Origin: Rhodothermales bacterium
GTDB taxonomy: Bacteria > Bacteroidota > Rhodothermia > Rhodothermales > Bin80
Assembly (NCBI GenBank): GCA_965203305.1
Contig: OZ241874.1
Span: forward strand, 2,865,687-2,929,686
Length of the DNA: 64,000 bases
Direction: 5' to 3'
In this document: piece by piece, positions 1 through 44,634 of the stretch
Layout: the number at the start of each line of letters is the position of its first letter
How positions within the stretch are numbered: the stretch's first letter is position 1
Made by a program: the position numbers and the translations under genes
Notes under the pieces: model-generated
Database searches by the model: none
Told to the model about the DNA's origin: nothing
What the model saw: only the letters and a program-made list of their open reading frames with translations

Positions 1-3000
1 GATACAATTCTGAACCCTGTGATTCTTACCTACCGGGACTTCGGCAAACGACTAAGCCCGGACGGATCACTCTGGGGATGGACCCCACTGCCGGGATTCA
101 TGAATGAAAACCGGCTGGATCCGATTACTGGACAGCGGACCCCAACACCTGCACTCAGTGATGATCCCAGCTCTTGGCCCCGGTTCTGGCCTGACCGCCT
201 GAACAACCCTGATGATCCCGGCTGGGCCGGAAACTGGAACGGATTTTTTGGCCGTGGGGTCTTTAATGCGGATCTGGAGAGTTTCTATGTGATGGATGAC
301 TTTACCGATCAGGAATATGCCGTTGATCCTGATACCCGGCGGCCCAACAGCGAATATGGTGTGTACTATGCCAGCAGTCAGGACTCCACGATTGGGGGCA
401 TGGGCCTGCAAACACAGGTTCGGCTGTTCCAGTGGGCGAATGTTCTGGCAGAAGACCTCATGTTTATCCTGTACCGCATCACAAATGTGACCAACAAGTC
501 TCATTCTGCCCTCTACCTGGGACAAATCATGGATTATGGTCTGGGGAACGAAGAGGGGGACGAAAATGCCGCGTTTGACCCTCAGCAGGATGTTGCCTAT
601 GGCTGGGATCAGGACGGGATAGGTACCCGCCCCACCGGAGGAAACTATTCGCTTGGATATACCGGGTTCGCATTCCTGGAAAGCCCCGCCCGTGCACGGG
701 ACGGAAGGGATAATGATGAAGATGGAATGACGGACGAATCCAGATTCAACGGCCCCGGCACACTTGTACAGGGACAGCAGCAGATCCTGGGGACTGCCAC
801 CGCAATGTATAATCTGGCAAACTTTGAAGCCTACTACGGCCCCATTTCGTCACGCCCTGCCTACACGGCAGGACGGTGGTGGACCGGAGATGAAAATATG
901 GACTGGGTGGGATTCTCTGATGATAATGGCAACGGAGTTCTGGACCCGGGAGAGGCACTGAACAATGATGTGGGACGCGACGGACAGGGACCGTTTGATC
1001 TCGGATACCCCGGCCCTGATGACGGAGAGGCAGACGGAATCCCCACTCCCGGAGAACCGAACTTTGATGAACTGGATGTGGACGAGTCTGATCAGGTTGG
1101 TCTGACTGGATTTGATTTGCAGACACGCCCCTTCTATGAGAGTGGGGACAACCTGCGGGAAGACTCCTGGATGTGGGACCGCATTATTAACCATGCCCAG
1201 TTTCCGCTTGGAACAAAGCCGGAAGCCTTCAAAGCCGACCTGGAACCGTTCATCCTGTTCTCTTCCGGACCCATTGGACTCGAACCGGAGGGAACCGATT
1301 TTTTCTCTACGGCCTGGATCTTTGGGGAAGATGAGCGTGACTTTTTCAAGAATCGCCGCACGGCACAGAGCATTTTCAATGCAGATTACAACTTTGCCCA
1401 GCCTCCCTTCCTTCCCAAGCTCACTGCGGTCGCTGGGGATGGACGCGTGGTGCTCAGCTGGGATACACTCGCTGTTCGCAGCTTTGACCGCTTTACCCAG
1501 GAATTTGACTTTGAAGGATTCAAGCTCTACAAAGGAACCGATCCCCTGCTCTTTGATGCACGTACCATCACCAATCTGGACGGAGTGGCAACATTCTTCA
1601 AGCCGATTGCACAGTGGGATCTGGAGAACGATATAGAAGGAGCCGTGACTGTACTGGAAGGCGAAGCCGTCTACTACCTCGGAGACGATACAGGTCTGCA
1701 ATTTTACTACATTGACGAAAATGTAACGAATGGAATCACCTACTACTATGCGCTGGTCGCCTATGACCGGGGGTTCCGTGATCCTGACGATCCACGCAAG
1801 GAGCCCATTGATCCGCAGGAGAATTCCTTCAATATCAGTGTGAACCAGGCAGGTCGTCTGACCGGATTTTCCCAAAATGCAGCGGTGGTAACTCCCCGAT
1901 CTGTCCCTGCAGGATATGTGGAAGGGGGAGCGAACGAAGACTTGAGTCGCGTGACCGAAGGGATTGGGGCTGGGTCCATCCGTGTAAGACTACTCCAGGA
2001 GGGCATCGCAGATTTTGACGGGGTCTATCGCATCTCCTTCTTCAGCGAACCCGTATCTGATGTCTCTGATCTCTATCGCACGAGAACCTATGAAGTAGTC
2101 AATGTTGCCTCTGGCGAGAAGCTGATTGAATCTTCCCCAATTGTGGAGTCTACTCCGCCCTCTGGCGGATTCGTCATTGACATTAACAATGTTGACTGTC
2201 CCCCTCCCCTTGGCTGCGAACTGGATCGGGTACAGACCGGATTCCTTGCAAACGAAGGTACACAGAACGAAGTCTATGATCTGGATCCACGCAACCTGGA
2301 TGGCTACTCCACGAACTGGGTGGCATCCGTGGATCGGGATACGACAGCGGCGTTTCGGGCATCCCCAGACGATTACAAACTGATCTGGGTATCTCCAAAT
2401 GATTCTCTGTATCGCCCGCCACGATTCTTTGGATATCTGCGGGGAGAGGTTCCCATTTTCACGATCAACGAAACCAAAAATACTCCGGCAGAACTCTTTA
2501 TGGAGGATACGAATGGGAGCGGGGAGTTTGATGCCGGCGATCAGGCGATCATTGCCGAACGTCCCGGCAGACGCGGTCCCTGGCGTTTTCGTTACCGCAT
2601 CCGCTTCAATGCAGCAGACGGTGGAAATTCCACTGCTCCCTCTGCGGGAAACTCCTTTCATATCACCAGCAAAAAACCTTTTGCAACCGGTGACTTCTTC
2701 CAATTTACCCTTCGCTCTTCCCGGATTGACTCCGAACTGGCACAGAACGAGCTGGATCGAATTGCCGTAGTTCCGAATCCCTATGTTGGAACCTCCACGT
2801 TTGAGCCGCGCAGCCAGATTGAAGGCCGGGGAGAGCGAAGAGTCCAGTTTATCCATCTTCCTCCCCAATGCACAATCCGCATCTTTAATATCCGGGGAGA
2901 GCTGATTCGCACCCTTCACCATGATAGCGTAACGAGTGATGGAGCGAGGTGGTGGGATCTGCGCACGGAAGAACAGCAGGATATTGCGTACGGGGTGTAC

Positions 3001-3063
3001 ATATTCCATGTGGAAGCTCCTGGAATTGGAGAACATGTGGGAAAATTTGCGCTGGTTAAATGA
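1..3063 (+). CDS. Large secreted protein, C-terminal 1014+ aa (5' end outside the window), with a type IX secretion (T9SS) C-terminal sorting domain
   Basis: The frame is open from nt 1, with no in-frame stop before the GTG at 19. It has Asp-rich calcium-binding-like repeats (DNDEDGMTDE, DDNGNGVLDPGE, DGEADGIPTPGE). The last ~80 aa (VVPNPYVG..TIRIFNIRGELIRTLHHD..YGVYIFHVEAPG..FALVK) show the beta-sandwich CTD pattern of T9SS cargo. The stop overlaps the next start (ATGA). Confidence 0.7.
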   Translation, partial: DTILNPVILTYRDFGKRLSPDGSLWGWTPLPGFMNENRLDPITGQRTPTPALSDDPSSWPRFWPDRLNNPDDPGWAGNWNGFFGRGVFNADLESFYVMDDFTDQEYAVDPDTRRPNSEYGVYYASSQDSTIGGMGLQTQVRLFQWANVLAEDLMFILYRITNVTNKSHSALYLGQIMDYGLGNEEGDENAAFDPQQDVAYGWDQDGIGTRPTGGNYSLGYTGFAFLESPARARDGRDNDEDGMTDESRFNGPGTLVQGQQQILGTATAMYNLANFEAYYGPISSRPAYTAGRWWTGDENMDWVGFSDDNGNGVLDPGEALNNDVGRDGQGPFDLGYPGPDDGEADGIPTPGEPNFDELDVDESDQVGLTGFDLQTRPFYESGDNLREDSWMWDRIINHAQFPLGTKPEAFKADLEPFILFSSGPIGLEPEGTDFFSTAWIFGEDERDFFKNRRTAQSIFNADYNFAQPPFLPKLTAVAGDGRVVLSWDTLAVRSFDRFTQEFDFEGFKLYKGTDPLLFDARTITNLDGVATFFKPIAQWDLENDIEGAVTVLEGEAVYYLGDDTGLQFYYIDENVTNGITYYYALVAYDRGFRDPDDPRKEPIDPQENSFNISVNQAGRLTGFSQNAAVVTPRSVPAGYVEGGANEDLSRVTEGIGAGSIRVRLLQEGIADFDGVYRISFFSEPVSDVSDLYRTRTYEVVNVASGEKLIESSPIVESTPPSGGFVIDINNVDCPPPLGCELDRVQTGFLANEGTQNEVYDLDPRNLDGYSTNWVASVDRDTTAAFRASPDDYKLIWVSPNDSLYRPPRFFGYLRGEVPIFTINETKNTPAELFMEDTNGSGEFDAGDQAIIAERPGRRGPWRFRYRIRFNAADGGNSTAPSAGNSFHITSKKPFATGDFFQFTLRSSRIDSELAQNELDRIAVVPNPYVGTSTFEPRSQIEGRGERRVQFIHLPPQCTIRIFNIRGELIRTLHHDSVTSDGARWWDLRTEEQQDIAYGVYIFHVEAPGIGEHVGKFALVK

Positions 3064-4118
3064 TGCGAGCCGCTCTACAGACTGTCGCCTGCCAAGTTGC
3101 GCTGCTGTTCGTACTGATCAGTGGCAGTGTGGGAATTGCACTGGCACAAAGCCGTTCGGGGACGACAGCTGCAAATTTTCTGACGATTGGAACTGGAGCA
3201 CGAGGGCAGGCACTGGGACACGCCTACACCGCTCTGGCCACCGGCGCAGATGCACTTTTCTGGAATCCGGCTGGGGCTGCCCGTGCGTATGAAGATAGAG
3301 CTTCGGGCGGGGTGTTCTTATCGCATTCGCGCTGGTTTGCCGACATTCAGTATAACGCCGCTTCTGTCACAGTCCCCGTGTATGGCGATCACGTATTGGG
3401 ACTGAGCGTGGCAGCCGTAAACTACGGGACCATGAAAGTGCGGACCGTAGCGTTCCCGGAAGGGACAGGCGAAACCTTCCGTGCGAGTGATTTCAGTCTG
3501 GGACTGAGCTATGCACAACCTCTCACAGAATCGTTCTACTTTGGAGGCACTGCCAAGTATGTACGCCAGCAGATCAGGGACATGACTGCCAGTACGATTG
3601 GATTTGATATTGGCTTTGTTCTGAAATCTGACTATCTCCGCGGTCTGATTCTGGCGGCATCCATTCAGAATTTCGGGGGGAAAATGCAAATGAGTGGAGT
3701 CAACAGTGTCGTATTCGTTGACATTGACGCCAAGATCAGCGGAAACAACCCCGATATTCCTGCTCGCATTGAGATGGATTCATGGGATCTGCCGCTCTCC
3801 TTCAAATTTGGGCTTGCCATGCCCGTTGTACAGGCTGGCATGATAGAGCTGTCTGCCCTTGCAGACATACAGCAGAGCAACGACAACAGCTTGAACGGAG
3901 ATGCTGGCATGCAACTGCGCATTCACAACCGGACCTTCAATTTTGATGTTCGGGGAGGATACAAGGATCTCTTTCTGGACAATGTGGACAGTCACCTGAC
4001 CTTTGGAGCCGGAATAGATGTGCGGGCATTCGGCGTTCGGCTTGGCTTTGATTATGCGTACACGCCATACAACCTCCTCGGGCAAACGCAAGTGGTGGAC
4101 TTCCGGGTATATTTCTGA
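3060..4118 (+). CDS. PorV/PorQ-family T9SS outer-membrane beta-barrel protein
   Basis: Signal peptide ending ALAQS. N-terminal motif AANFLTIGTGARGQALGHAYTALATGADALFWNPAG is typical of the PorV/PorQ family. Alternating beta-strand pattern and a C-terminal aromatic residue (..RVYF). Sits directly after a CTD cargo gene. Confidence 0.7.
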   Translation: MMRAALQTVACQVALLFVLISGSVGIALAQSRSGTTAANFLTIGTGARGQALGHAYTALATGADALFWNPAGAARAYEDRASGGVFLSHSRWFADIQYNAASVTVPVYGDHVLGLSVAAVNYGTMKVRTVAFPEGTGETFRASDFSLGLSYAQPLTESFYFGGTAKYVRQQIRDMTASTIGFDIGFVLKSDYLRGLILAASIQNFGGKMQMSGVNSVVFVDIDAKISGNNPDIPARIEMDSWDLPLSFKFGLAMPVVQAGMIELSALADIQQSNDNSLNGDAGMQLRIHNRTFNFDVRGGYKDLFLDNVDSHLTFGAGIDVRAFGVRLGFDYAYTPYNLLGQTQVVDFRVYF

Positions 4119-5361
4119 GCCCTGGGGCATACTCCTGATTCTTTTCCTGCTCGCTGGATGCTCTGCATCTCCGGAGGAGCAGGATCAGGCACTGGCGGAC
4201 ATCAACGGACATGTCATTACGGTCGGAGCATTTGAACGCTCCTATGTCCAGGCACTGATCCAGAGCGGCCAGAATGATACTCCAGATGCACGTTATGCGC
4301 ACCTGAACCTTCTCATTGACGAGTACCTCTGGTACGAGGAAGCCCTTCGACACAATCTGGATGCGGACAGCCTACTCCCCGAGTTTGCCGAACTGGCCCT
4401 CAAAAAGGCTACAGGTGGACGTTTCTATGAGCTTGAATTTGTGGAGAAGCTCCCCCCGTTAAAAGATTCAGAAATCCGCCAGGCGTTTGCCCGATACAAG
4501 CAGCCTCTACTCGTCCGCCATCTCTTCTATCGAAACGAAGCGGATGCCCGTACAACACATGCCAGACTTGAGTCTGGACATTCTTTTCTTGATGAAGCGC
4601 AACTTGCGTTCCAGACGGAAGCATTTGATTCCACCGCAGGATGGCTTGGGGAAATCCGTTACTTTCAGGCAGACGATGCATTTGCGGAAGCAGCCTTTGC
4701 ATTGTCTACGGGAGAGTACTCCACCCCGGTTCGCACCCGGCAGGGATGGCATATTGTCAAAGTGGAGGACCGTCTCGGGACTCCCATTATTGTGGAATCA
4801 GAATTTCAGAACCGCAAGGGCGGGATTGCAAGCCTGCTGCGTATCCGCAGGAGGCGACTGGAGGGAGATCGTTTTGTCCGTGCCTACATGGAAGCCAGAT
4901 CTGTACAGATCAACGAAGAGGGGGTTCGGTCACTCCGGGCAGCATTGGGACGAATCATGGAACGGTCTGCTGTCCTGAATGATACCTATGACACCGCAGC
5001 CCGGCCGCTAACCCCGCAGACCCCGCTTGCGATATTCAGGGCAGATGGTGAAATGCGGACATTCACAGCTGAAGACTACTTCTTCTGGTTTTCTGAGCTG
5101 CCCCTTTCCGAAGCGGCTTCCAGCCCGGCCGCATCTCTGGGGCGTGCGATTCGTAACGAGGCCCTTGCACTGGCAGGAATGGCACGTGGCCTTGAAAAGG
5201 ATGTGATTGTACAGGAGGAGGTTGCAATGTCCGGCAGGACATACCTTGCAAACTCCATGCGCAGGCAGCTGGAATCTGACAGCACTGTACTGGGAGCACT
5301 TCGGTCGGCAGCATCAGTCCATGTGGACACGGTGCTGTTCGCGCAAATCATGGTTGATTGA
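4054..5361 (+). CDS. Parvulin-type peptidyl-prolyl isomerase (SurA/PpiC-like) lipoprotein
   Basis: Lipobox LLAGC after a basic N-region. Parvulin core LLVRHLFYRNEADA..GWLGEIRYFQ..FALSTGEYSTPVRTRQGWHIVKVEDR. Start placed at the ATG at 4054. The track start at 4018 overlaps the upstream gene by 100 nt, so the start is uncertain. Confidence 0.7.
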   Translation: MRTRHTTSSGKRKWWTSGYISEPWGILLILFLLAGCSASPEEQDQALADINGHVITVGAFERSYVQALIQSGQNDTPDARYAHLNLLIDEYLWYEEALRHNLDADSLLPEFAELALKKATGGRFYELEFVEKLPPLKDSEIRQAFARYKQPLLVRHLFYRNEADARTTHARLESGHSFLDEAQLAFQTEAFDSTAGWLGEIRYFQADDAFAEAAFALSTGEYSTPVRTRQGWHIVKVEDRLGTPIIVESEFQNRKGGIASLLRIRRRRLEGDRFVRAYMEARSVQINEEGVRSLRAALGRIMERSAVLNDTYDTAARPLTPQTPLAIFRADGEMRTFTAEDYFFWFSELPLSEAASSPAASLGRAIRNEALALAGMARGLEKDVIVQEEVAMSGRTYLANSMRRQLESDSTVLGALRSAASVHVDTVLFAQIMVD

Positions 5362-8774: not shown

Positions 8775-8802
8775 GGGGCTCATATGCGTGAGTGTCCATG
8801 AG
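8775..8802. repeat. Solo copy of the tnpB-element terminal repeat
   Basis: GGGGCTCATATGCGTGAGTGTCCATGAG matches the reverse complement of the 40374-40401 end of tnpB element 2 (GGGGCTCATATACGTGAGGGCCTATGAG) at 24/28 positions. No tnpB follows it. MITE A2 starts 5 bp later. Confidence 0.45.
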
Positions 8803-9405: not shown

Positions 9406-10092
9406 TCACACCGCAAGGCGTTTTTGTTCCACTGCTCCTTTGATCATTTGAAGGAAGTGATCAACCCCCAGCTTTGTTTCCAGTTTACGGAAATTCTCAT
9501 CTGACACCTCGGGCAAGTCCTCCTTCCTGCACTGCCGCAACACTTTCCCCTTGTGCTGGTCCAGCATAAATATTGCCAGACACTGAGCATCTGGAATATG
9601 GGGCTGTCCATGATCTTCCACCAGCTTTGCATACAGCTCAATCGCATGATTGTCTACTGCTTCCATCTTGCCAACTGCTCCGCCCTTCTTCAAATAGGGA
9701 TTAGGATGAAGACGGAGCAAGATATGTCCAAACGCGATATTCTCGTTCCGTAAATTCGCTGTTTCGCCCAGCTGTTGCTCAAAGTAGTTGTTCTTGTTCT
9801 GCCGGTAGTTTGTCATCACAAATTTGATGCTGACAACCCCCAGCATTGTGTCACCTCGGGAAATGGCGACATCCACACTCTTTGTATAATAATGCCCCTT
9901 TGCTTTCTTCTCTTCCCCGCCCTCTGTCGAAAGCCCCTGTATTGTGTAGGCATTGCCAAGGACCTGCTTAAGCTCTCTGATCACCCACCCGCGGAGAATC
10001 TTGAGCTTTTTGTTATACCGTGGATGTGTCTCCACATACGCCTGGTACGCTTCCTGTACCGCTCGCAGGAATCTGTCTTGCAGGGGAGTCAT
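9406..10092 (-). CDS. Putative type II restriction endonuclease (PD-(D/E)XK-like)
   Basis: Its ATG overlaps the methylase stop (ATGA at 10089-10092), which indicates translational coupling with the methylase. It has a candidate PD-(D/E)XK core (SVDVAISRGDTMLGVVSIKF) but no other recognisable family motif, so the function is inferred mainly from context. Confidence 0.5.
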   Translation of the reverse strand: MTPLQDRFLRAVQEAYQAYVETHPRYNKKLKILRGWVIRELKQVLGNAYTIQGLSTEGGEEKKAKGHYYTKSVDVAISRGDTMLGVVSIKFVMTNYRQNKNNYFEQQLGETANLRNENIAFGHILLRLHPNPYLKKGGAVGKMEAVDNHAIELYAKLVEDHGQPHIPDAQCLAIFMLDQHKGKVLRQCRKEDLPEVSDENFRKLETKLGVDHFLQMIKGAVEQKRLAV

Positions 10093-11584
10093 TGTTCGAG
10101 GGTATATTTCTGAGAAGGGAGGGGGAAATTCTGAATGTAGCGCTTGGCGTAAGAAAACCATCCGCCCTGAAACGGTTGTGCGTAGGTGCGGATGTGTTCC
10201 TCCATTTCAGGACTGTTCAGGGCCGCTACGAGCATCTCCATGCAGTGTCCGTCCCTGGGCTTGATACAATAGCCGGAATAGAACAGCGTATCGGGATCCT
10301 TGCACATCTGAAAGTTCGGGGAGGGATTCATCCCCGAGGTCAGAATCTTCTGTCCGAATCCAGTGCGGATCCCCACTCCTCGGCCATATCCATACCACTT
10401 GGATGGATCCGTTGCTCCCTTGTCCCTTTGGAGGAGCTTTTCCTTATGTTCAAGGAGCCACTGGTATGCCTTGGGAAATCGCTGAGCAAGGGAGGATTCC
10501 GGGAGCAGCTTCCCCGCCTTGTCATAGGGATAGATAATCACGCGATTGACACGGTCCTTCCCATCCTTCATTACCGAGGCCTTAAGTATCTTTCGCACCG
10601 CACTTCGTTCAATCACGAATTCTCTGCCTGCTGCCTTCACGATAATCTCTTTCTGCTTCCACATTACCGCCTCAAGAATAAACACGCGGTCCGCCAATGT
10701 CTGAATCCCGACATGGATGTCGGCAATATCGGACAGACGGGGGGCTGATATTTCCTGTGCAGCATCCCGTGCACATACGGCCCACTGCGGGGATGAGCAG
10801 GCTAGCATCCCAGCCTCCTCAAATCCAGCTTCCCCCCATTGATATACGCGGGGGACGATATCCTTTTTCCCCTTGGCAATCCGGGTAAGACATGTGTATG
10901 TGCTGTATCCGGGAAAGACCTGATGGTCGCGGAAGTCGTGCAGGGATACAATACCATGGTGCTGGGCAAGGTCCTGCCTCATCGGGAGGCCGGCATCATT
11001 TCGCAGCCACCCGCTCGGGGAAATGTAAAGCAGTTCTCCCTGCTGCTTCAGCAGGCGGAGTCCCAGCTCAAAAAAATAATGTACAGATCACTTGCCCCAC
11101 GGAAATATGCCCATCCCCCCTGCTTCACTTGCTCCCGCCGGTGTTTCTCCATGTGCTGAATACGAACATATGGCGGATTCCCGACAACACAGTCACATAT
11201 ACCTTCGTCCTGCTCCCACAGGGAAAGGGCATCGCCTTCCAGTATCCGCCAGGAACATGTGGGGAATGTGCCCCCGAGATACTTCTCGGCGACAAGGGAA
11301 AGCCTCTTGCGACATTCGGAGACAGCACGCGTATCCACATCGTATCCCGTCAGGTTCTGCAGAGTAGACAGATACAGTTTCTTTTGGTATAGGGATGCCC
11401 GCGAGGCTCTCTGGCACACCTCACTGGCCAAAGGCACCAGAAAATCGCCGGTACCGCAGGCAGGATCACAGATCCTGACATTCCTGAGAGAGCCTGCAAA
11501 CACGGGGGCAAGGAGTTGCTCCACGATCCAGCCTGGGGTATAGACCCGCCCGAAGTACTTCGTTGTATCGGTCGCGTGCTCCAT
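10089..11584 (-). pseudogene. N6-adenine DNA methyltransferase (TaqI/Eco57I-like, gamma class), split by a frameshift in an A7/T7 homopolymer
   Basis: The N-terminal frame (11584-11048) has motif I DPACGTGDFL and motif IV NPPYV. It stops 7 codons after the T7 run. Adding one T at 11070-11076 reads ..DLYIIFFELGLRLLKQQGELLYISPSGWLRNDAG.., which is the expected continuation, into the 10982-10089 frame (TaqI_C-like target-recognition domain). Confidence 0.8.
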
Positions 11585-11599
11585 GGATCCTTGCTATTT

Positions 11600-11760
11600 G
11601 GGGCTTATATACCTGAGTGCCCATAGACTATTTGTCTTGGTCCCAGTCTCGTTGACGGGTCATCAGGGAACCCAACGGTTCACCCCTCGCACATCCAGAA
11701 GCCCCAACCCCGGAGGCCAGTATGTTCGCGGCAGCGTTGATGTCCGCGTGTTCCGCATGT
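11600..11760 (-). ncRNA. Putative omega-RNA (reRNA) scaffold region of tnpB element 1
   Basis: In characterised TnpB systems the guide RNA comes from the tnpB 3' end plus the right element end. Here nucleotide blocks are shared with element 2, and one of them is translated in a different frame in the two copies (see findings). The boundaries are guesses. Confidence 0.35.
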
Positions 11761-12902
11761 CCACAGGACATACACTTGAATTTGCGCAGGGAAGCGCGAT
11801 TGCCCGCGTCCCTGTGTCCGCACCGGCTACAGTTCTGGCTCGTGTACGCGGCCACCACAGAGAGAACGAGAACGCACTTGTACCCCAGCATCTGCACCAG
11901 CTGTCCCGGCGCACCTTCCAGCAGAACCCGGTTCATCCCCGCTTTCGCTTTGACATTCTTGCCCGGATTCTCTGTCGTCCCACGGGCCAAGGCGGTCATG
12001 CTTTTCACCTTCAGGTTCTCCACCACCACTACAGGGGCTGCCTTCGCGATTTTCGCACTGTTCTGGTGATTGCGGTTATGACTGAAGTTTGCCAGATAGG
12101 TGCTGCACTTCTGGATCTTGCCCTGTGTCTTCTTCGCCCGGTTCGACATCTTTTTCCGACCGGCCGCTTTCTGCCGGGCAATCTGCTTCGCCAGCTTCCG
12201 CTCATACCTGCATTTGCGCAATCGCACCCGCTTGTCCGCCTCACTCTCCAGCACTTCAGGGTCCCTGCCGTCACTGCAGGCCACGGCGATCATGCCACTG
12301 GCGTTCCGGTCAATTCCCGCCACCACGCCGGTATCTTCTATGAGCACCTCGTCTATCTCGTATGTGATGGTGGCCCACCACTTCCCGCCTTTCCTGTATA
12401 CCGTGATGTCTTTCGTGATTCCCTCCGGGTACGGGTTGCCCCCTTTCCTGCGGAGGATTACCGTGCACATCTCCTTTCCCTTGATCGTCAGCTGGTTCCC
12501 CCTCAACGTGTACCCCGTTTTGTCCGGGATGGTGAAGGACGGCTTGGTCCGGTCTCTGCTGTGAAAGCGGGGAGGCTCCGAAAGCCCCTTGTCGTACCTG
12601 CCCCATGCGTCTGCCTGGTACTTGAATACATACCGTACCGTGGCATACTGGTAGTGTTTCAGCCACGGATACTTTTTCTTCAGGATCCGCATGTACTCGC
12701 TCCCGGTACTGAAGAAGGTGGTGGACGGTCCGTTCTCCCCTCGCTCCCGTGCCTCCTGTTTTCGCTGGAGGGTAATGGCGAGACCTTCGTTCCACATCTT
12801 CCTCCAGACCCCTGCCAGCCGCGCCAGTTTCCGGGCTTTGGTGCCCGATCCCGGCAGGATGCGGTAGGTGATCCTACGGTAGGTCTTGCCTGCCTTTGCC
12901 AT
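11628..12902 (-). CDS. tnpB: TnpB (IS200/IS605-family OrfB, RNA-guided RuvC endonuclease family)
   Basis: RuvC-I GIDRN, RuvC-II VVVENLKVKSM, zinc finger CSRCGH..CMSCGH, and RuvC-III HADINAAANI are all present. 424 aa, apparently intact. Confidence 0.9.
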   Translation of the reverse strand: MAKAGKTYRRITYRILPGSGTKARKLARLAGVWRKMWNEGLAITLQRKQEARERGENGPSTTFFSTGSEYMRILKKKYPWLKHYQYATVRYVFKYQADAWGRYDKGLSEPPRFHSRDRTKPSFTIPDKTGYTLRGNQLTIKGKEMCTVILRRKGGNPYPEGITKDITVYRKGGKWWATITYEIDEVLIEDTGVVAGIDRNASGMIAVACSDGRDPEVLESEADKRVRLRKCRYERKLAKQIARQKAAGRKKMSNRAKKTQGKIQKCSTYLANFSHNRNHQNSAKIAKAAPVVVVENLKVKSMTALARGTTENPGKNVKAKAGMNRVLLEGAPGQLVQMLGYKCVLVLSVVAAYTSQNCSRCGHRDAGNRASLRKFKCMSCGHAEHADINAAANILASGVGASGCARGEPLGSLMTRQRDWDQDK

Positions 12903-13118
12903 GGTGTCTGTCAGTGTTCTCTTCCAACCTGCGGGACATAAAATGGTTCACTTCTCATGGGCCCTTAGGTATATAAGCCCCTGCTATTTCCTGGAACTTA
13001 TAAAGGAAACTCTACCGCGAGAATTCATGCGGCAGTCTTTCTCTCTGTCAATGGAACGTATACTCGGCCCATGTTGACATGGACATTCCGATATACAAGT
13101 CCCCAACAAAATCCGGAC

Positions 13119-13454
13119 TTACAATGCCGCCTTCGCTGCGTCCAGATCATCATAGATCTGGATGATCTGCCCGAACCCGCTGATCTCAAATACTTCCTTC
13201 ACTGCATTGGACAGACCGCAAATGGAAAAGCGTCTGGATTGGCGGAACAGTTTGGCCAGCTCAAGGACGACCCTGAGACCTGCACTGCTAATGTATTCGA
13301 GCCGGCTGAAATCAAGGATCAGTGCACGATCCGTTTCCACAAGTTCGCCAGTAATTGTCTCCTTGAAAGACAGCGCATTACGGCTGTCAACCCGCCCGAT
13401 CAGGGTGGAGGTTCGGATACCATCCTCAAATTCCCAGGTTATGTTTAGACTCAT
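13119..13454 (-). CDS. STAS-domain anti-sigma-factor antagonist (SpoIIAA-like)
   Basis: Length ~111 aa with the pattern LIGRVDS..A..F...I......ALILDFSRLEYISSAGLRVVLEL..........ICGLS..VKEVFEISGF. Confidence 0.8.
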   Translation of the reverse strand: MSLNITWEFEDGIRTSTLIGRVDSRNALSFKETITGELVETDRALILDFSRLEYISSAGLRVVLELAKLFRQSRRFSICGLSNAVKEVFEISGFGQIIQIYDDLDAAKAAL

Positions 13455-13630
13455 CTGCAGATTCTGCTTGAAAGGTTTAAGCACAAAAATATCCGGCCAG
13501 CATCAGACTGACATTGATGCATGCCAAGATACTGTATTTTATTCATTCAGTTCTTGAACCCTCCGAGCAGAGACTTGTTGCATTGGAATACACTTGATAC
13601 AGTCATCGCACATTGGATTCATAGAGATTT

Positions 13631-39026: not shown

Positions 39027-39190
39027 GGGGCTTATATACGTGAGGGCCCATATTAAGATGGAACCGGTACACGTACACTTGACGGGTCATCGGGGTCCCC
39101 ACCGGGAACGCCCCTCGCACGTCCAGATGCCCCATGCCCTGGGGCCCGCAAGATGTTCGCGGCCGCATTCAGATCCGCGTGTTCTTCGTA
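39027..39190 (-). ncRNA. Putative omega-RNA scaffold region of tnpB element 2
   Basis: Same reasoning as for 11600-11760. The boundaries are guesses. Confidence 0.3.
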
Positions 39191-40321
39191 ACCACAGCCC
39201 AGGCACACAAACTTGCGCAATGTGACCCGGCTGTTCCTGTCTACATGTCCGCACAGACTGCAGGTCTGGCTGGTGTACGCTGCCACCACATAGAGAACGA
39301 GAACGCACTTGTACCCCAGCATCTGTACCAGCTGGGCGGGGGCTCCTTCCAGCAAAACCCGGTTCAGCCCCGTTTTCTGCCGGACATTCGTGCCCGGATT
39401 CTCTATCGTTCCCCCGGCAGATCCGGTCATTCCCTTGATGGACAGCTTCTCCACTTTTACCGTGGATGCCTTCTCCGCAATCCGGGCACTGTTCTGATGG
39501 TTCCGGTTGTGCCGGCAGTTCGCCTCTTTTCTGCTGAGCCTGGCAATCTGCTGTTGCGTCTTCTTTGCCCGGTTCGACGTCTCTGTGCGTCCGTCCTTCT
39601 CCTGCCGGTCCAGTTGCCCGGCCAGCTTCCGCTGCTTGCGCTTTTTCCTGGTCTCATAGACCGGGTTGGTGGGATGATCCAGCACCTCATCCGGCGTGTC
39701 ATCCGAGTAGGCCACCGCGATCATGCCACTGGTGTTCCGGTCAATCCCCGCCGTGACTCCATTGTCCACCCGCACCCGCTCGTCAATCTCATAGGTCACC
39801 GAGACATACCAGTTCTTCCCCTGCTTGTAGACGCGGGCCTGTTTCGGGACTCCATCGGGATACGGATTCTCACCCCGTCGACGGAGCCGCACCTTCCCGA
39901 CTCTGGGGATGTGAATCTTCCCGGCCGCAATCCTGACGTGATCGGGAATTGTGAAGGAGGGAGTCGTTTTATGCTTGGCCTTAAACCGGGGCTTGCCGGC
40001 CGGGCTATCAAAGGAGTTCTTGAAAGCCTGGGACAGATGTTTTAGCGTATGGCGAACACAGGCACAGGAGTATTCCTGCAGCCACGCATACTCTGGATCG
40101 TTGCGCAACTGCGTAAACTCGCTGGAGAGATCCTCGTACCTTATGGACGGAGTCGGGGTGCCGTTCGCCTGCGACTCCGCATATTCTTTCTGGTTCCTGG
40201 CAAGGAAGAAATTCCAGACGAAGCGGCAGGCCCCGCACATCCCATGGAGCTGGTGTTCCTGCTCCTCATCGGGAAGCATACGGTAGGTGATGCCGCGATA
40301 GGTCTTGCCTGCCTTTGCCAT
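39053..40321 (-). CDS. tnpB: TnpB (second, diverged copy)
   Basis: GIDRN, VKVEKLSIKGM, CSLCGH..CLGCGY, and HADLNAAANI are all present. It shares the N-terminus MAKAGKTYR.ITYR.LP and the block LNRVLLEGAP.QLVQMLGYKCVLVL.VVAAYTSQ.CS.CGH with copy 1, but is clearly diverged elsewhere. Confidence 0.9.
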   Translation of the reverse strand: MAKAGKTYRGITYRMLPDEEQEHQLHGMCGACRFVWNFFLARNQKEYAESQANGTPTPSIRYEDLSSEFTQLRNDPEYAWLQEYSCACVRHTLKHLSQAFKNSFDSPAGKPRFKAKHKTTPSFTIPDHVRIAAGKIHIPRVGKVRLRRRGENPYPDGVPKQARVYKQGKNWYVSVTYEIDERVRVDNGVTAGIDRNTSGMIAVAYSDDTPDEVLDHPTNPVYETRKKRKQRKLAGQLDRQEKDGRTETSNRAKKTQQQIARLSRKEANCRHNRNHQNSARIAEKASTVKVEKLSIKGMTGSAGGTIENPGTNVRQKTGLNRVLLEGAPAQLVQMLGYKCVLVLYVVAAYTSQTCSLCGHVDRNSRVTLRKFVCLGCGYEEHADLNAAANILRAPGHGASGRARGVPGGDPDDPSSVRVPVPS

Positions 40322-40374
40322 GGTGACGATGGAATTCCTCTGTCAACCTGCGGGCCCATAAAATGGTTCAGTCC

Positions 40375-41538
40375 TCATAGGCCCTCACGTATATGAGCCC
40401 CTTTATTTTGCAATCCATGTACAGCCCTTCCAAATAATTCAGAAGCTCGAAAAATTTCTTCTTCGGTTGTTGGACGACCGAGGCTAATTCGCAATGTCTG
40501 CCCGGCAATATCTGCCCCGACTCCCATGGCCGAGAGAACCCGACTAGGCATGCGCTGCCCCGATCCACAGGCACTTCCTGTCCCTACTGCCAAAGGCCGA
40601 ATGGACAGCAAAAGTCGCTCCACATTCAAATTCGGGAATGATATGCTGCTCGTCTGCGGAAGTCTCTCGACTTCTCTGCCATGAATTTGAATCTCGGTAT
40701 TCTCCTTCATTATGCTGTGCTCAAATCTGTCACGCAAAGCAGAAAGCCGTATTCCATCCTCCTCACACTCCAGTTTTGCCAGTCGAAAGGCTTCTCCCAT
40801 CCCGACGATGCCTGGCACATTATGGGTACCGCCACGGTGCCCCTGTTCCTGCCCTCCACCGTCTATTAGTGGGGTGTATCGAATGCGTCCTCGAACAAAT
40901 GTTGCACCTACCCCCTTGGGTCCATAGACCTTGTGCGCACAGCAAACCAGAATGTCTACATCTTCAACGGACACCGGCACCTTTCCAATTGCCTGTGTGG
41001 CATCGGTCATCAGTGGAATCCCTCGTCCCCGAACCAGCTCTGCAATCTCCGGGATCGAATTTATCACCCCTGTCTCATTATTCGCCCACATTACGCAAAC
41101 CACGATTGTATCCTCTGTCAGGCTTCGTTCCAGATCGTCAAAACCCAGAAGTCCATTTGCATCAACGGGCAAGTAGGTGACACGCCAGCCGCGCTGCTCC
41201 AGGTGCTTGCACGCGTGGGTAACAGCACTGTGCTCTGTCTGTACGGTTATGATATGCTGCCCCTGACGGCAACGGGATTCCGCCAGCCCCTTGATTGCCG
41301 CATTAATGCCCTCTGTTGCGCCGCTTGTGAATACAATTTCACTGGGGCGGGATGCACCAAGACACTCAGCCACTTCTATGCGTGCTTTCTCAACCGCGGC
41401 ACTTGCTGTCCACCCGTACATATGTGCCTGACTGGATGGATTGCCATAATGCTCTGTGAAATAGGGCAACATCTTTTCCATGACACGGGGATCCACCGGT
41501 GTCGTGGCATTGTAATCCAGATAGATCGTCTCAGCCAT
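40375..41538 (-). CDS. Cysteine desulfurase (NifS/IscS-like, class V aminotransferase), with a 3' end rebuilt by the tnpB element
   Basis: IYLDYNATTPVDPRV, GNPSS.H, FTSGATEGIN, HKVYGPKGVGA (PLP Lys), and GTGSACGSG (catalytic Cys loop). The last 8 codons (GAHIREGL) and the stop are encoded by the element terminus at 40375-40401. Confidence 0.9.
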   Translation of the reverse strand: MAETIYLDYNATTPVDPRVMEKMLPYFTEHYGNPSSQAHMYGWTASAAVEKARIEVAECLGASRPSEIVFTSGATEGINAAIKGLAESRCRQGQHIITVQTEHSAVTHACKHLEQRGWRVTYLPVDANGLLGFDDLERSLTEDTIVVCVMWANNETGVINSIPEIAELVRGRGIPLMTDATQAIGKVPVSVEDVDILVCCAHKVYGPKGVGATFVRGRIRYTPLIDGGGQEQGHRGGTHNVPGIVGMGEAFRLAKLECEEDGIRLSALRDRFEHSIMKENTEIQIHGREVERLPQTSSISFPNLNVERLLLSIRPLAVGTGSACGSGQRMPSRVLSAMGVGADIAGQTLRISLGRPTTEEEIFRASELFGRAVHGLQNKGAHIREGL

Positions 41539-44308: not shown

Positions 44309-44634
44309 ATGTCATTGAGAAACCCTGACTGTAACAGCCAGCCAGTATACACCGCAGAACAGCTCGTGGCAAGTATCTGATCAATGCACAGGAAGGGGAT
44401 ATTGTCGCCCGAATCCATCAACATCTGATCACCTTTCGTTCCGTTCTTAGTACAGTTTCCTACATAATTCCCTTCTCAAACATCACCTAGCTCGTACACA
44501 ATTCCTGCCGTAGCCACACGGTGAATTTGAAAATAAACCAGATCGTGGACACAATCAAGGAAGTGAAATTTTTTGAGTAAATTCCGAAAATACTCCGTGG
44601 GGTTTTCTGAGACTGCTCATGTTATAAACCACAA

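Follow-up and report, generated by a model that had tools for sequence, protein, structure and literature searches.

The 64-kb window analysed here, by which we mean the whole stretch of DNA from a Rhodothermales bacterium, contains at positions 11600–12981 an element of about 1.4 kb that carries tnpB as its sole gene between 25-bp inverted ends. We call this element copy 1, and the tnpB 3′ side its right end. Its parts and flanking positions are the following.

11580–11599, minus strand: predicted guide segment, AAAUAGCAAGGAUCCAUGGA, proposed from the flank asymmetry and the known organization of TnpB guide RNAs
11592–11599: target-site duplication (TSD), copy beside the right end, TGCTATTT, identical at 8/8 positions to 12982–12989
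11600–11624, minus strand: terminal inverted repeat (TIR) of the right end, on the tnpB 3′ side; in the inward direction it is GGGGCTTATATACCTGAGTGCCCAT
11628–12902, minus strand: tnpB coding sequence, 424 aa, catalytic and zinc-finger residues intact, stop codon 3 nt from the inverted repeat
11654–11717, minus strand: conserved structured RNA block in the tnpB 3′ end, four helices and 17 base pairs, eight of them with compensatory changes, interpreted as an omega RNA scaffold
12957–12981, minus strand: TIR of the left end, on the tnpB 5′ side; going inward, its minus-strand sequence is GGGGCTTATATACCTAAGGGCCCAT
12982–12989: TSD, copy beside the left end, TGCTATTT
12990, minus strand: G on the tnpB strand directly 5′ of the left duplication, a candidate minimal target-adjacent motif

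The two arms of copy 1 match at 23 of 25 positions (92% complementary; inverted repeat I1). A degenerate 25-mer that combines both arms matches the window four times, against 0.00 matches expected from 100 dinucleotide-preserving shuffles. The exact 8/8 identity of the flanks has a chance probability of about 1.5e-5 for uniform bases, or about 2e-4 when AT-richness is allowed for, and such identity recurs in independent insertions. Chance is therefore excluded as the source of the copy 1 ends and duplication.

The open reading frame (ORF) 12902..11628 on the minus strand is the only long ORF of copy 1 with a family match in Pfam. It scores 63 bits for Cas12f1-like_TNB (PF07282) and 23.9 bits for OrfB_IS605, the latter below its 30.5-bit cut-off. 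Among the ORFs of at least 70 aa inside copy 1, none besides tnpB has another family match, so the serine-recombinase TnpA typical of IS607 elements is absent. The RuvC residues D198, E295 and D387 and the zinc-finger residues C358, C361, C377 and C380 are all present, and these seven residues are invariant in an alignment with 11 relatives (12 sequences, 31–67% identity to copy 1). As judged from its sequence, the tnpB of copy 1 is catalytically intact. More distant cassette lineages, in which TnpB is 25–35% identical, also keep full-length tnpB ORFs with both Pfam domains. The nearest annotated relatives, on annotated plasmids, are ordinary IS200/IS605 TnpBs at 31–33% identity; no curated close relative was found on annotated plasmids, where only generic 'IS1595 family transposase' labels occur, at 43% identity or less. 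The sequence-only reading of this DNA had described 25-bp inverted ends and a perfect 8-bp duplication around a single intact tnpB with its D/E/D residues and both CxxC pairs, and each of these statements was confirmed.

We scanned one genome per species with the exact pattern GGGGCTYATATACNTNAGNGCC and obtained 45 loci. Their hosts are metagenome-assembled genomes (MAGs) of Rhodothermales, Acidobacteriota, Flavobacteriaceae, Caldilineaceae, Latescibacterota, Arenicellales, Spongiisociaceae and others. Several of the host MAG names hint at an association with sponges. On viral contigs the end pattern is essentially absent, which leaves carriage by phages unsupported. The interiors between these ends vary, comprising tnpB cassettes of several lineages, a miniature element and transposase-encoding elements. 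Among the tnpB cassettes are a 1244-bp element that encodes a 391-aa TnpB and is multicopy in two Acidobacteriota genomes, the 1383-bp element L039, whose TnpB has 367 aa, and Rhodothermales elements together with deletion derivatives of them. The miniature inverted-repeat element, 149 bp long, lies at 3672–3820 of locus L038 in an Arenicellales genome and has the same ends and a perfect 8-bp duplication, CAATTTTT.

The transposase-encoding elements connect these ends with the IS1595 family. L027 is a contig of 4714 bp (1–4714) that spans exactly from repeat to repeat. Its first ORF matches DDE_Tnp_IS1595 (PF12762) with 130 bits and the IS1595 zinc ribbon weakly, with 20 bits (cut-off 25.4), and the transposase is followed by a restriction-modification methylase and then a specificity subunit as cargo. 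L048 (611–4393) has GGGGCTTATATACTTTAGTGCC at each end, the 8/8 duplication TATTTTTG, a transposase gene at 706–1641 and a methylase, and its ends agree with the right end of copy 1 at 20/22 positions in a comparison by eye. L049 (4143–12981) also bears a transposase and has the 8/8 duplication ATAAAAAA; L021 and L031 are further transposase-bearing loci with the same end. The sequence-only reading had suggested looking in the full genome and its relatives for a copy that also encodes a DDE transposase; L027, L048 and L049 combine the end sequence with such a transposase in other genomes. The passengers of these three autonomous IS1595-type elements are an N6 methylase, a specificity subunit and a methylase-HNH; a single transposon family therefore ferries defence genes and RNA-guided nucleases alike.

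The IS1595 family is the bacterial relative of the eukaryotic Merlin superfamily; its hallmarks are 8-bp duplications, GG(GG) tips and AT-rich targets, and one of its elements, ISApl4, has the inverted repeat GGGGCTGTACTAGA (PMC8101967, PMC12561309). The inverted repeats of copy 1 begin with GGGGCTTATATAC, in agreement with the GG or GGGG starts of IS1595 ends. With its GGGG-starting ends and AT-rich 8-bp duplication, copy 1 is like IS1595 and the passenger-carrying derivatives of this family (Siguier et al. 2009; ISApl4), whose relatives encode a Zn-ribbon and DDE_Tnp_IS1595 transposase and tend to carry passengers. Unlike them, it lacks a transposase and carries as its passenger an RNA-guided nuclease together with the guide RNA of that nuclease. 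Because an ORF with PF12762 is absent from copy 1 and from the whole window, copy 1 is a derivative and not an autonomous member of the family. For this group we take 'ggnnatTAT' to be the ISNwi1-like end consensus. A transposase is missing from every tnpB cassette examined, and among some 12 loci that bear a transposase, recovered through their end pattern or through TnpB similarity, none has tnpB between its ends; the association of tnpB with the IS1595 transposase is here via common ends only. These data support the assignment of 11600–12981, by sequence, to the IS1595 family as a transposase-less, non-autonomous cassette with tnpB and a putative guide-RNA scaffold, and an IS1595-type transposase presumably moves it in trans. 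The earlier proposal of a DDE cut-and-paste element, with tnpB as cargo and mobilization in trans, is thus upheld as far as the 8-bp duplications and the ends common to IS1595 elements are concerned, while the trans-acting transposase was not located in the source genome.

Elements with these ends duplicate an AT-rich 8-bp target on insertion; in most paired elements the duplication is perfect, and its sequence varies with the site. Of the end pairs in the window and the first 45 loci, 12 have 8/8 flanks, and their 8-mers are unrelated. Besides copy 1, different perfect 8-mers flank at least 15 independent tnpB cassettes, among them L003, L019, L020, L022, L030, L033, L037, L039, L044, L046, L055, L060 and L210–L212. 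L046, from a 3.67-Mb genome, is 95% identical to copy 1 and has its own 8/8 duplication, AATTTATA; L055 and L060, with their 8/8 duplications, come from metagenomes. The Acidobacteriota cassettes (L003, L011, L019, L020, L022, L030, L033, L035, L037 and L044; two genomes) encode proteins that are 95–97% identical, and these ten cassettes mostly have perfect duplications, which implies that they were active recently. A second end type, GGGAGTTATAAAGGAAACTGTAAC, bounds L210–L212, three cassettes of a sister subclade with 64–68% identical TnpB, all with perfect 8-bp duplications. The third end type is an unrelated 28-bp repeat, TGGCTCTAATCACTTTGTTGTGGAAT, that bounds two more members of this TnpB group, L073 (3808–5376) and L075 (3846–5406), whose 8-bp flanks match nearly. 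From the ends of L073 and L075, the TnpB lineage seems to have switched transposon ends more than once. Among the ways in which the sequence-only reading could fail or lose interest, it had named two that bear on this. One, that other copies never show a duplicated 8-mer, does not apply, as more than 15 cassettes have 8/8 flanks. The other, that a TIR with a TSD is the rule in this TnpB clade according to curated records, applies in part, since both proved to be standard in this lineage; the observation is real but less novel.

We also built a rough neighbour-joining tree, without bootstrap, of 167 TnpBs from loci found by end pattern or TnpB similarity. One split separates 35 TnpBs from a clade of 132. 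The group of 35 consists of all 28 TnpBs with GGGR.T.ATA-type ends on at least one side (19 on both) and seven unflagged ones, and the clade of 132 has a single chance one-sided end match. Since the TIR-bounded TnpBs all lie on one side of this single split, the tree suggests a single long-standing association between TnpB and inverted ends, followed by exchange of end types; the branch separating the 35 from the 132 is short, and the sampling is biased by the locus-finding route.

To describe the tnpB 3′ region, we took the final 300 nt, in tnpB sense, from 13 cassettes that cover both main end types and aligned them. Past the last catalytic motif lies a block in which nucleotide conservation exceeds that explained by the diverging protein tail, at 11717→11654 in copy 1 and 39145→39081 in a second cassette of the window (copy 2, described below). 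RNAalifold places four helices in this block. There, 94.6% of the cells are paired compared with 82.7% in shuffles, eight of the 17 pairs have changes on both sides, and 0/500 shuffles reach the observed values. When the partners were moved by 1–3 columns in a slide control, pairing went down to 31–59%. On this covariation, we read the block as the putative omega RNA scaffold of TnpB. An Rfam scan of 11000–13500 at a permissive threshold gave no match; the guide RNA of this TnpB clade thus has no curated family.

Between the scaffold and the element tip lies a linker whose bases frequently pair with the right repeat along its inner half. At right ends such as 39027–39075 in the window, ∼5185–5235 in L055 and ∼2755–2807 in L210, the sequence directly inward of the right repeat is complementary to the inner 10–18 nt of the repeat; this complementarity changes along with the repeat, and about 7–12 nt are left unpaired before the flank. 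A pseudoknot between the repeat tip AAGCCCC and the internal UUGGGGCUU (inverted repeat I20) was considered and rejected, because that GGGGC covaries with an upstream GCCUC (GCGUC/GGCGC in L053, L055 and L057).

The flanks of the cassettes differ in a way that follows tnpB. After orienting the cassettes by tnpB, we compared non-redundant left flanks (n = 30) and right flanks (n = 26). The base directly 5′ of the left duplication is G in 28/30 cassettes, whereas at the mirror-image position beyond the right duplication 5/26 have G (Fisher p = 1e-8). At transposase-element ends the base is G in 4/12 (p = 1.5e-4), a control of only 12 ends that come from other subfamilies. The left G is seen in Rhodothermales, in Acidobacteriota, in the window-clade lineages, with both main end types and in metagenomic members. 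The two exceptions are copy 2 and L213, whose duplications have decayed; L216, which was fetched afterwards, has the G too. Among the Acidobacteriota copies the contrast is present within one and the same elements: the left flank has G in 10/10 and the right-flank bases are mixed. From a symmetric transposase acting on near-identical ends a symmetric preference is expected, whereas the observed G follows the direction of tnpB. This one-sided G fits a guide that would be taken from the right flank and used with a minimal G as target-adjacent motif. In copy 1, the predicted guide runs 11599→11580, the G is the complement of base 12990, and the predicted guide-bearing RNA past the right tip (11600) would read AAAUAGCAAGGAUCC.... 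The unoccupied version of the copy 1 site would read ...CCATGGATCCTTGCTATTTCCTGGAACTTATAAAGG....

We consider it probable that copy 1 is an IS1595-type non-autonomous cassette that is moved in trans and whose TnpB is guided to its own unoccupied site. An IS1595-type transposase encoded elsewhere, its gene predicted to lie between GGGGCTTATATAC... or GGGAGTTATAAAGG... ends, would bind the ends and would move the cassette via staggered 8-bp cuts in the target. Transcription of the scaffold would continue through the right inverted repeat into the flank, so that the guide would start with the 8-bp duplication. TnpB with this guide would then cut the unoccupied site (G, 8-mer and flank), either following excision or on a sister or competing copy of the chromosome, and repair from the occupied copy would restore or spread the cassette. 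The occupied site would be protected at its right end by the repeat tip, in which ...CCCC and not G precedes the right flank, and at its left end by a guide match limited to 8 nt. More tentatively, the whole TnpB lineage may have adapted to TSD-making DDE transposons of the IS1595 type through a read-through guide, a single-G motif and CCCC self-protection. If so, the single-G motif would let almost any insertion site be re-cut when empty, and the lineage would be a bacterial counterpart of the partnership between Fanzor1 and TIR transposons, with a TnpB that is naturally nearly free of a motif requirement.

Several results weigh against the trans-mobilized, self-site-targeting cassette. A tblastn search of the window with an IS1595 transposase gave zero matches, as the sequence-only reading had anticipated in noting no matching transposase there. 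Of more than 8000 matches to the L027 transposase, none among the best 120 lies on the contigs with the closest tnpB copies (3.67 and 3.83 Mb), and no IS1595 transposase could be assigned to the source genome, these best 120 matches all being on other contigs. A 6.3-Mb Acidobacteriota contig has nine tnpB cassettes and, by end pattern, no transposase-bearing element; in the contigs of the ten Acidobacteriota cassettes named above, the end-pattern scan likewise gave no element that has a matching end and bears a transposase. Searches with the copy 1 TnpB, the STAS neighbour, the methylase fragment and the copy 2 neighbour yielded no empty site. The G signal is a signature of retention or selection and no demonstration of cleavage, its transposase-element control is small, and a one-base target-adjacent motif is unusual for TnpB. 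Finally, the scaffold stops 39–100 nt short of the element tip, at a distance that varies between lineages, so for a guide beyond the repeat the linker and the repeat must belong to the RNA. The linker–repeat hairpin that could span this distance is stronger on the right side of the cassettes than on the left (p = 0.006), yet its shuffle z-scores are weak and the window clade has a comparable left-end hairpin; as a right-end-specific feature it is suggestive only.

The alternative that survives best is that tnpB is a passive hitch-hiker, an IS1341-type unit that landed in an IS1595 miniature element, with no effect of TnpB or its RNA on spread. The cassettes spread although they have no transposase inside, the same ends also move cargo of unrelated kinds (restriction-modification genes, for instance), and DDE excision already leaves a double-strand break, so that a homing nuclease seems redundant (an argument made in PMC13565253). 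Passive carriage leaves the one-sided G unexplained, however, and it accords poorly with an intact tnpB whose catalytic residues are invariant at 31–67% identity, with full-length ORFs in distant lineages, with compensatory changes that maintain the RNA scaffold and with TIR-bounded TnpBs on one side of a single tree split. We therefore regard it as unlikely.

The stop of the covarying structure before the tip would also fit a fixed internal guide. Here the scaffold would end at ...GACCCGUCAA (about 11650) and the next 16–20 nt, CGAGACUGGGACCAAGACAA in copy 1, would act as an unvarying guide, a relic of the flanking sequence present when capture took place, with which TnpB would target one constant sequence or have a regulatory role. 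The TCAA or TGAT-like ending of the block presumably resembles the right-end cleavage motifs of IS200/IS605 elements. Against this, the orientation-specific left G ties TnpB to the individual insertion site, and the linker commonly pairs with the inner repeat, as though the RNA runs to the tip; we think a fixed guide quite improbable. The remaining reading, a canonical IS200/IS605 element of the IS1341 group moved as a single strand by a Y1 TnpA in trans, with coincidental ends and 8-mer, is practically untenable: the TnpB has the usual domains and its nearest annotated relatives sit in IS200/IS605 elements, but the 23/25 inverted ends occur four times in the window against 0 expected, IS1595 transposase genes are bounded by the same ends, and more than 15 independent insertions with different perfect 8-bp duplications already refute it.

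According to the 2026 review PMC13565253, IS200/IS605 elements are marked by subterminal hairpins in place of inverted ends, generate no duplication and integrate on the 3′ side of a fixed 4–5 nt motif; IS607 elements have a serine-recombinase TnpA and neither inverted repeats nor a duplication. The contrast with IS200/IS605, which the sequence-only reading had drawn for TIRs and target duplication, agrees with that source. Copy 1 is like the IS1341 group of IS200/IS605 in its single tnpB with RuvC and zinc-finger residues and in the structured guide RNA in the 3′ end of the gene. It falls outside that group because of its 25-bp inverted repeats and the variable 8-bp duplications, and inverted repeats and a duplication also set it apart from IS607.

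TnpB has been found with DDE transposons before. Altae-Tran et al. 2023 (PMC10691335) describe six DDE-transposase-associated TnpB branches (DDE-1 to DDE-6), all with inverted terminal repeats, as well as solo TnpBs whose ends are nearly identical to those of transposase-bearing systems, implying mobilization in trans. The DDE partners named are IS630 in the main text of PMC10691335 and ISL2, IS630 and IS1031 in PMC13565253. Like these systems, as far as those texts describe them, copy 1 has tnpB inside inverted repeats, the tnpB 3′ end near the transposon end, solo copies that would be moved in trans and ends in common with DDE elements, as in L048. Unlike some members, in which tnpB and a DDE transposase share one element, the two were never found together here. 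IS1595 as a TnpB partner is not mentioned in the main text of PMC10691335 or the searchable text of PMC13565253, and the searchable full-text literature yielded no paper that connects TnpB with IS1595, ISXO2 or Merlin. A one-sided G beside a duplication was not found in the searchable literature either. Nuclease genes in DDE transposons were already published in 2023; the IS1595 partnership and the one-sided G are, as far as we have checked, unreported.

Fanzor1 (HERMES) is a TnpB-family nuclease that also resides in DDE-type transposons with TIRs and TSDs, whereas copy 1 is bacterial and has a TnpB of ordinary size. Eukaryotic Fanzor RNAs extend over the terminal repeat and on into the flanking DNA, and the adjacent motif of these nucleases corresponds to their insertion site (PMC13565253). 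No association between Merlin and Fanzor was found in the literature examined. Mobile insertion cassettes such as MIC231 of Bacillus cereus, reportedly described by De Palmenaer and co-workers in 2004, are said to have the ends of an insertion sequence and passengers but no transposase, and to be mobilized in trans; they differ from copy 1 in IS family and cargo.

Two further tnpB-related features lie in the window.

39027–40401, minus strand: copy 2, a second cassette of the same family with the same inverted ends, which are the other two window matches of the degenerate 25-mer
12993–13050, plus strand: remnant of about 60 bp from the right end of a sister tnpB cassette, repeat type GGGASTTATAAAGGAAACTGTA, in which 38 of the first 40 nt match L210

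The tnpB of copy 2 (40321..39053) encodes 422 aa and is 52% identical to that of copy 1. Its flanking 8-mers, TTTATCAT and TTTATTTT, match at 6/8 positions, and there is no G 5′ of the left duplication. Copy 2 is an older or rearranged member of the same cassette family. Its left end overlaps the 3′ end of ORF 41538..40375, and the inverted repeat supplies the last codons of this ORF. Copy 1 inserted 3 bp from the tip of the 12993–13050 remnant, and a solo end of the GGGASTTATAAAGGAAACTGTA type also occurs at 44449–44472, with no adjoining tnpB.

On its other side, copy 1 is upstream of a DNA-methylase fragment (11584..11048; PF07669, PF02384), with 7 bp between the insertion and the start codon. 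The DNA methylase region (10089–11584, minus strand) is split into a 178-aa ORF with Eco57I and N6_Mtase matches and a 297-aa ORF without a Pfam match. Since the start codon sits 7 bp from the insertion, the methylase gene has probably been inactivated or severed from its promoter. A diverged type-1-like end, GGGGCTCATATGCGTGAGTGTCCAT, lies at 8775–8799, and a possible partner lies at about 13079–13104 (reverse complement GGGGACTTGTATATCGGAATGTCCAT); together they enclose the genes at 9406–11584 (among them DNA-methylase fragments), copy 1 and the type-2 remnant. The interval from 8775 to about 13104 may represent an older cargo element of IS1595 type, comparable to L027 or L048, although its two ends align poorly with each other and the flanks, CAAACAAA and AACAAAAT, show no clean duplication. 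With the STAS neighbour as query we found a related strain, L214, that has the same insertion as copy 1. Searches with the exact copy 1 TnpB, the methylase fragment and the copy 2 neighbour gave no matching record elsewhere.

TnpB is the ancestor of Cas12. What it does biologically has been established only in IS605 and IS607 elements, whose excision leaves no scar. What a guide-RNA nuclease gains for a cut-and-paste DDE transposon is posed as an open question in the 2026 review (PMC13565253). The cassette family described here offers a tractable bacterial case, with many recent copies that have perfect duplications and a scaffold supported by covariation. It makes a testable prediction, namely that the guide would consist of the duplication and the flank and that the adjacent motif would be a single G. 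If this minimal motif is real, these TnpBs would be of interest to genome editors, for whom the motif requirement limits target choice. In addition, the 22-nt end sequence is distributed over Rhodothermales, Acidobacteriota, Flavobacteriaceae, Chloroflexota, Latescibacterota and Proteobacteria, which speaks for active horizontal transfer of these elements.

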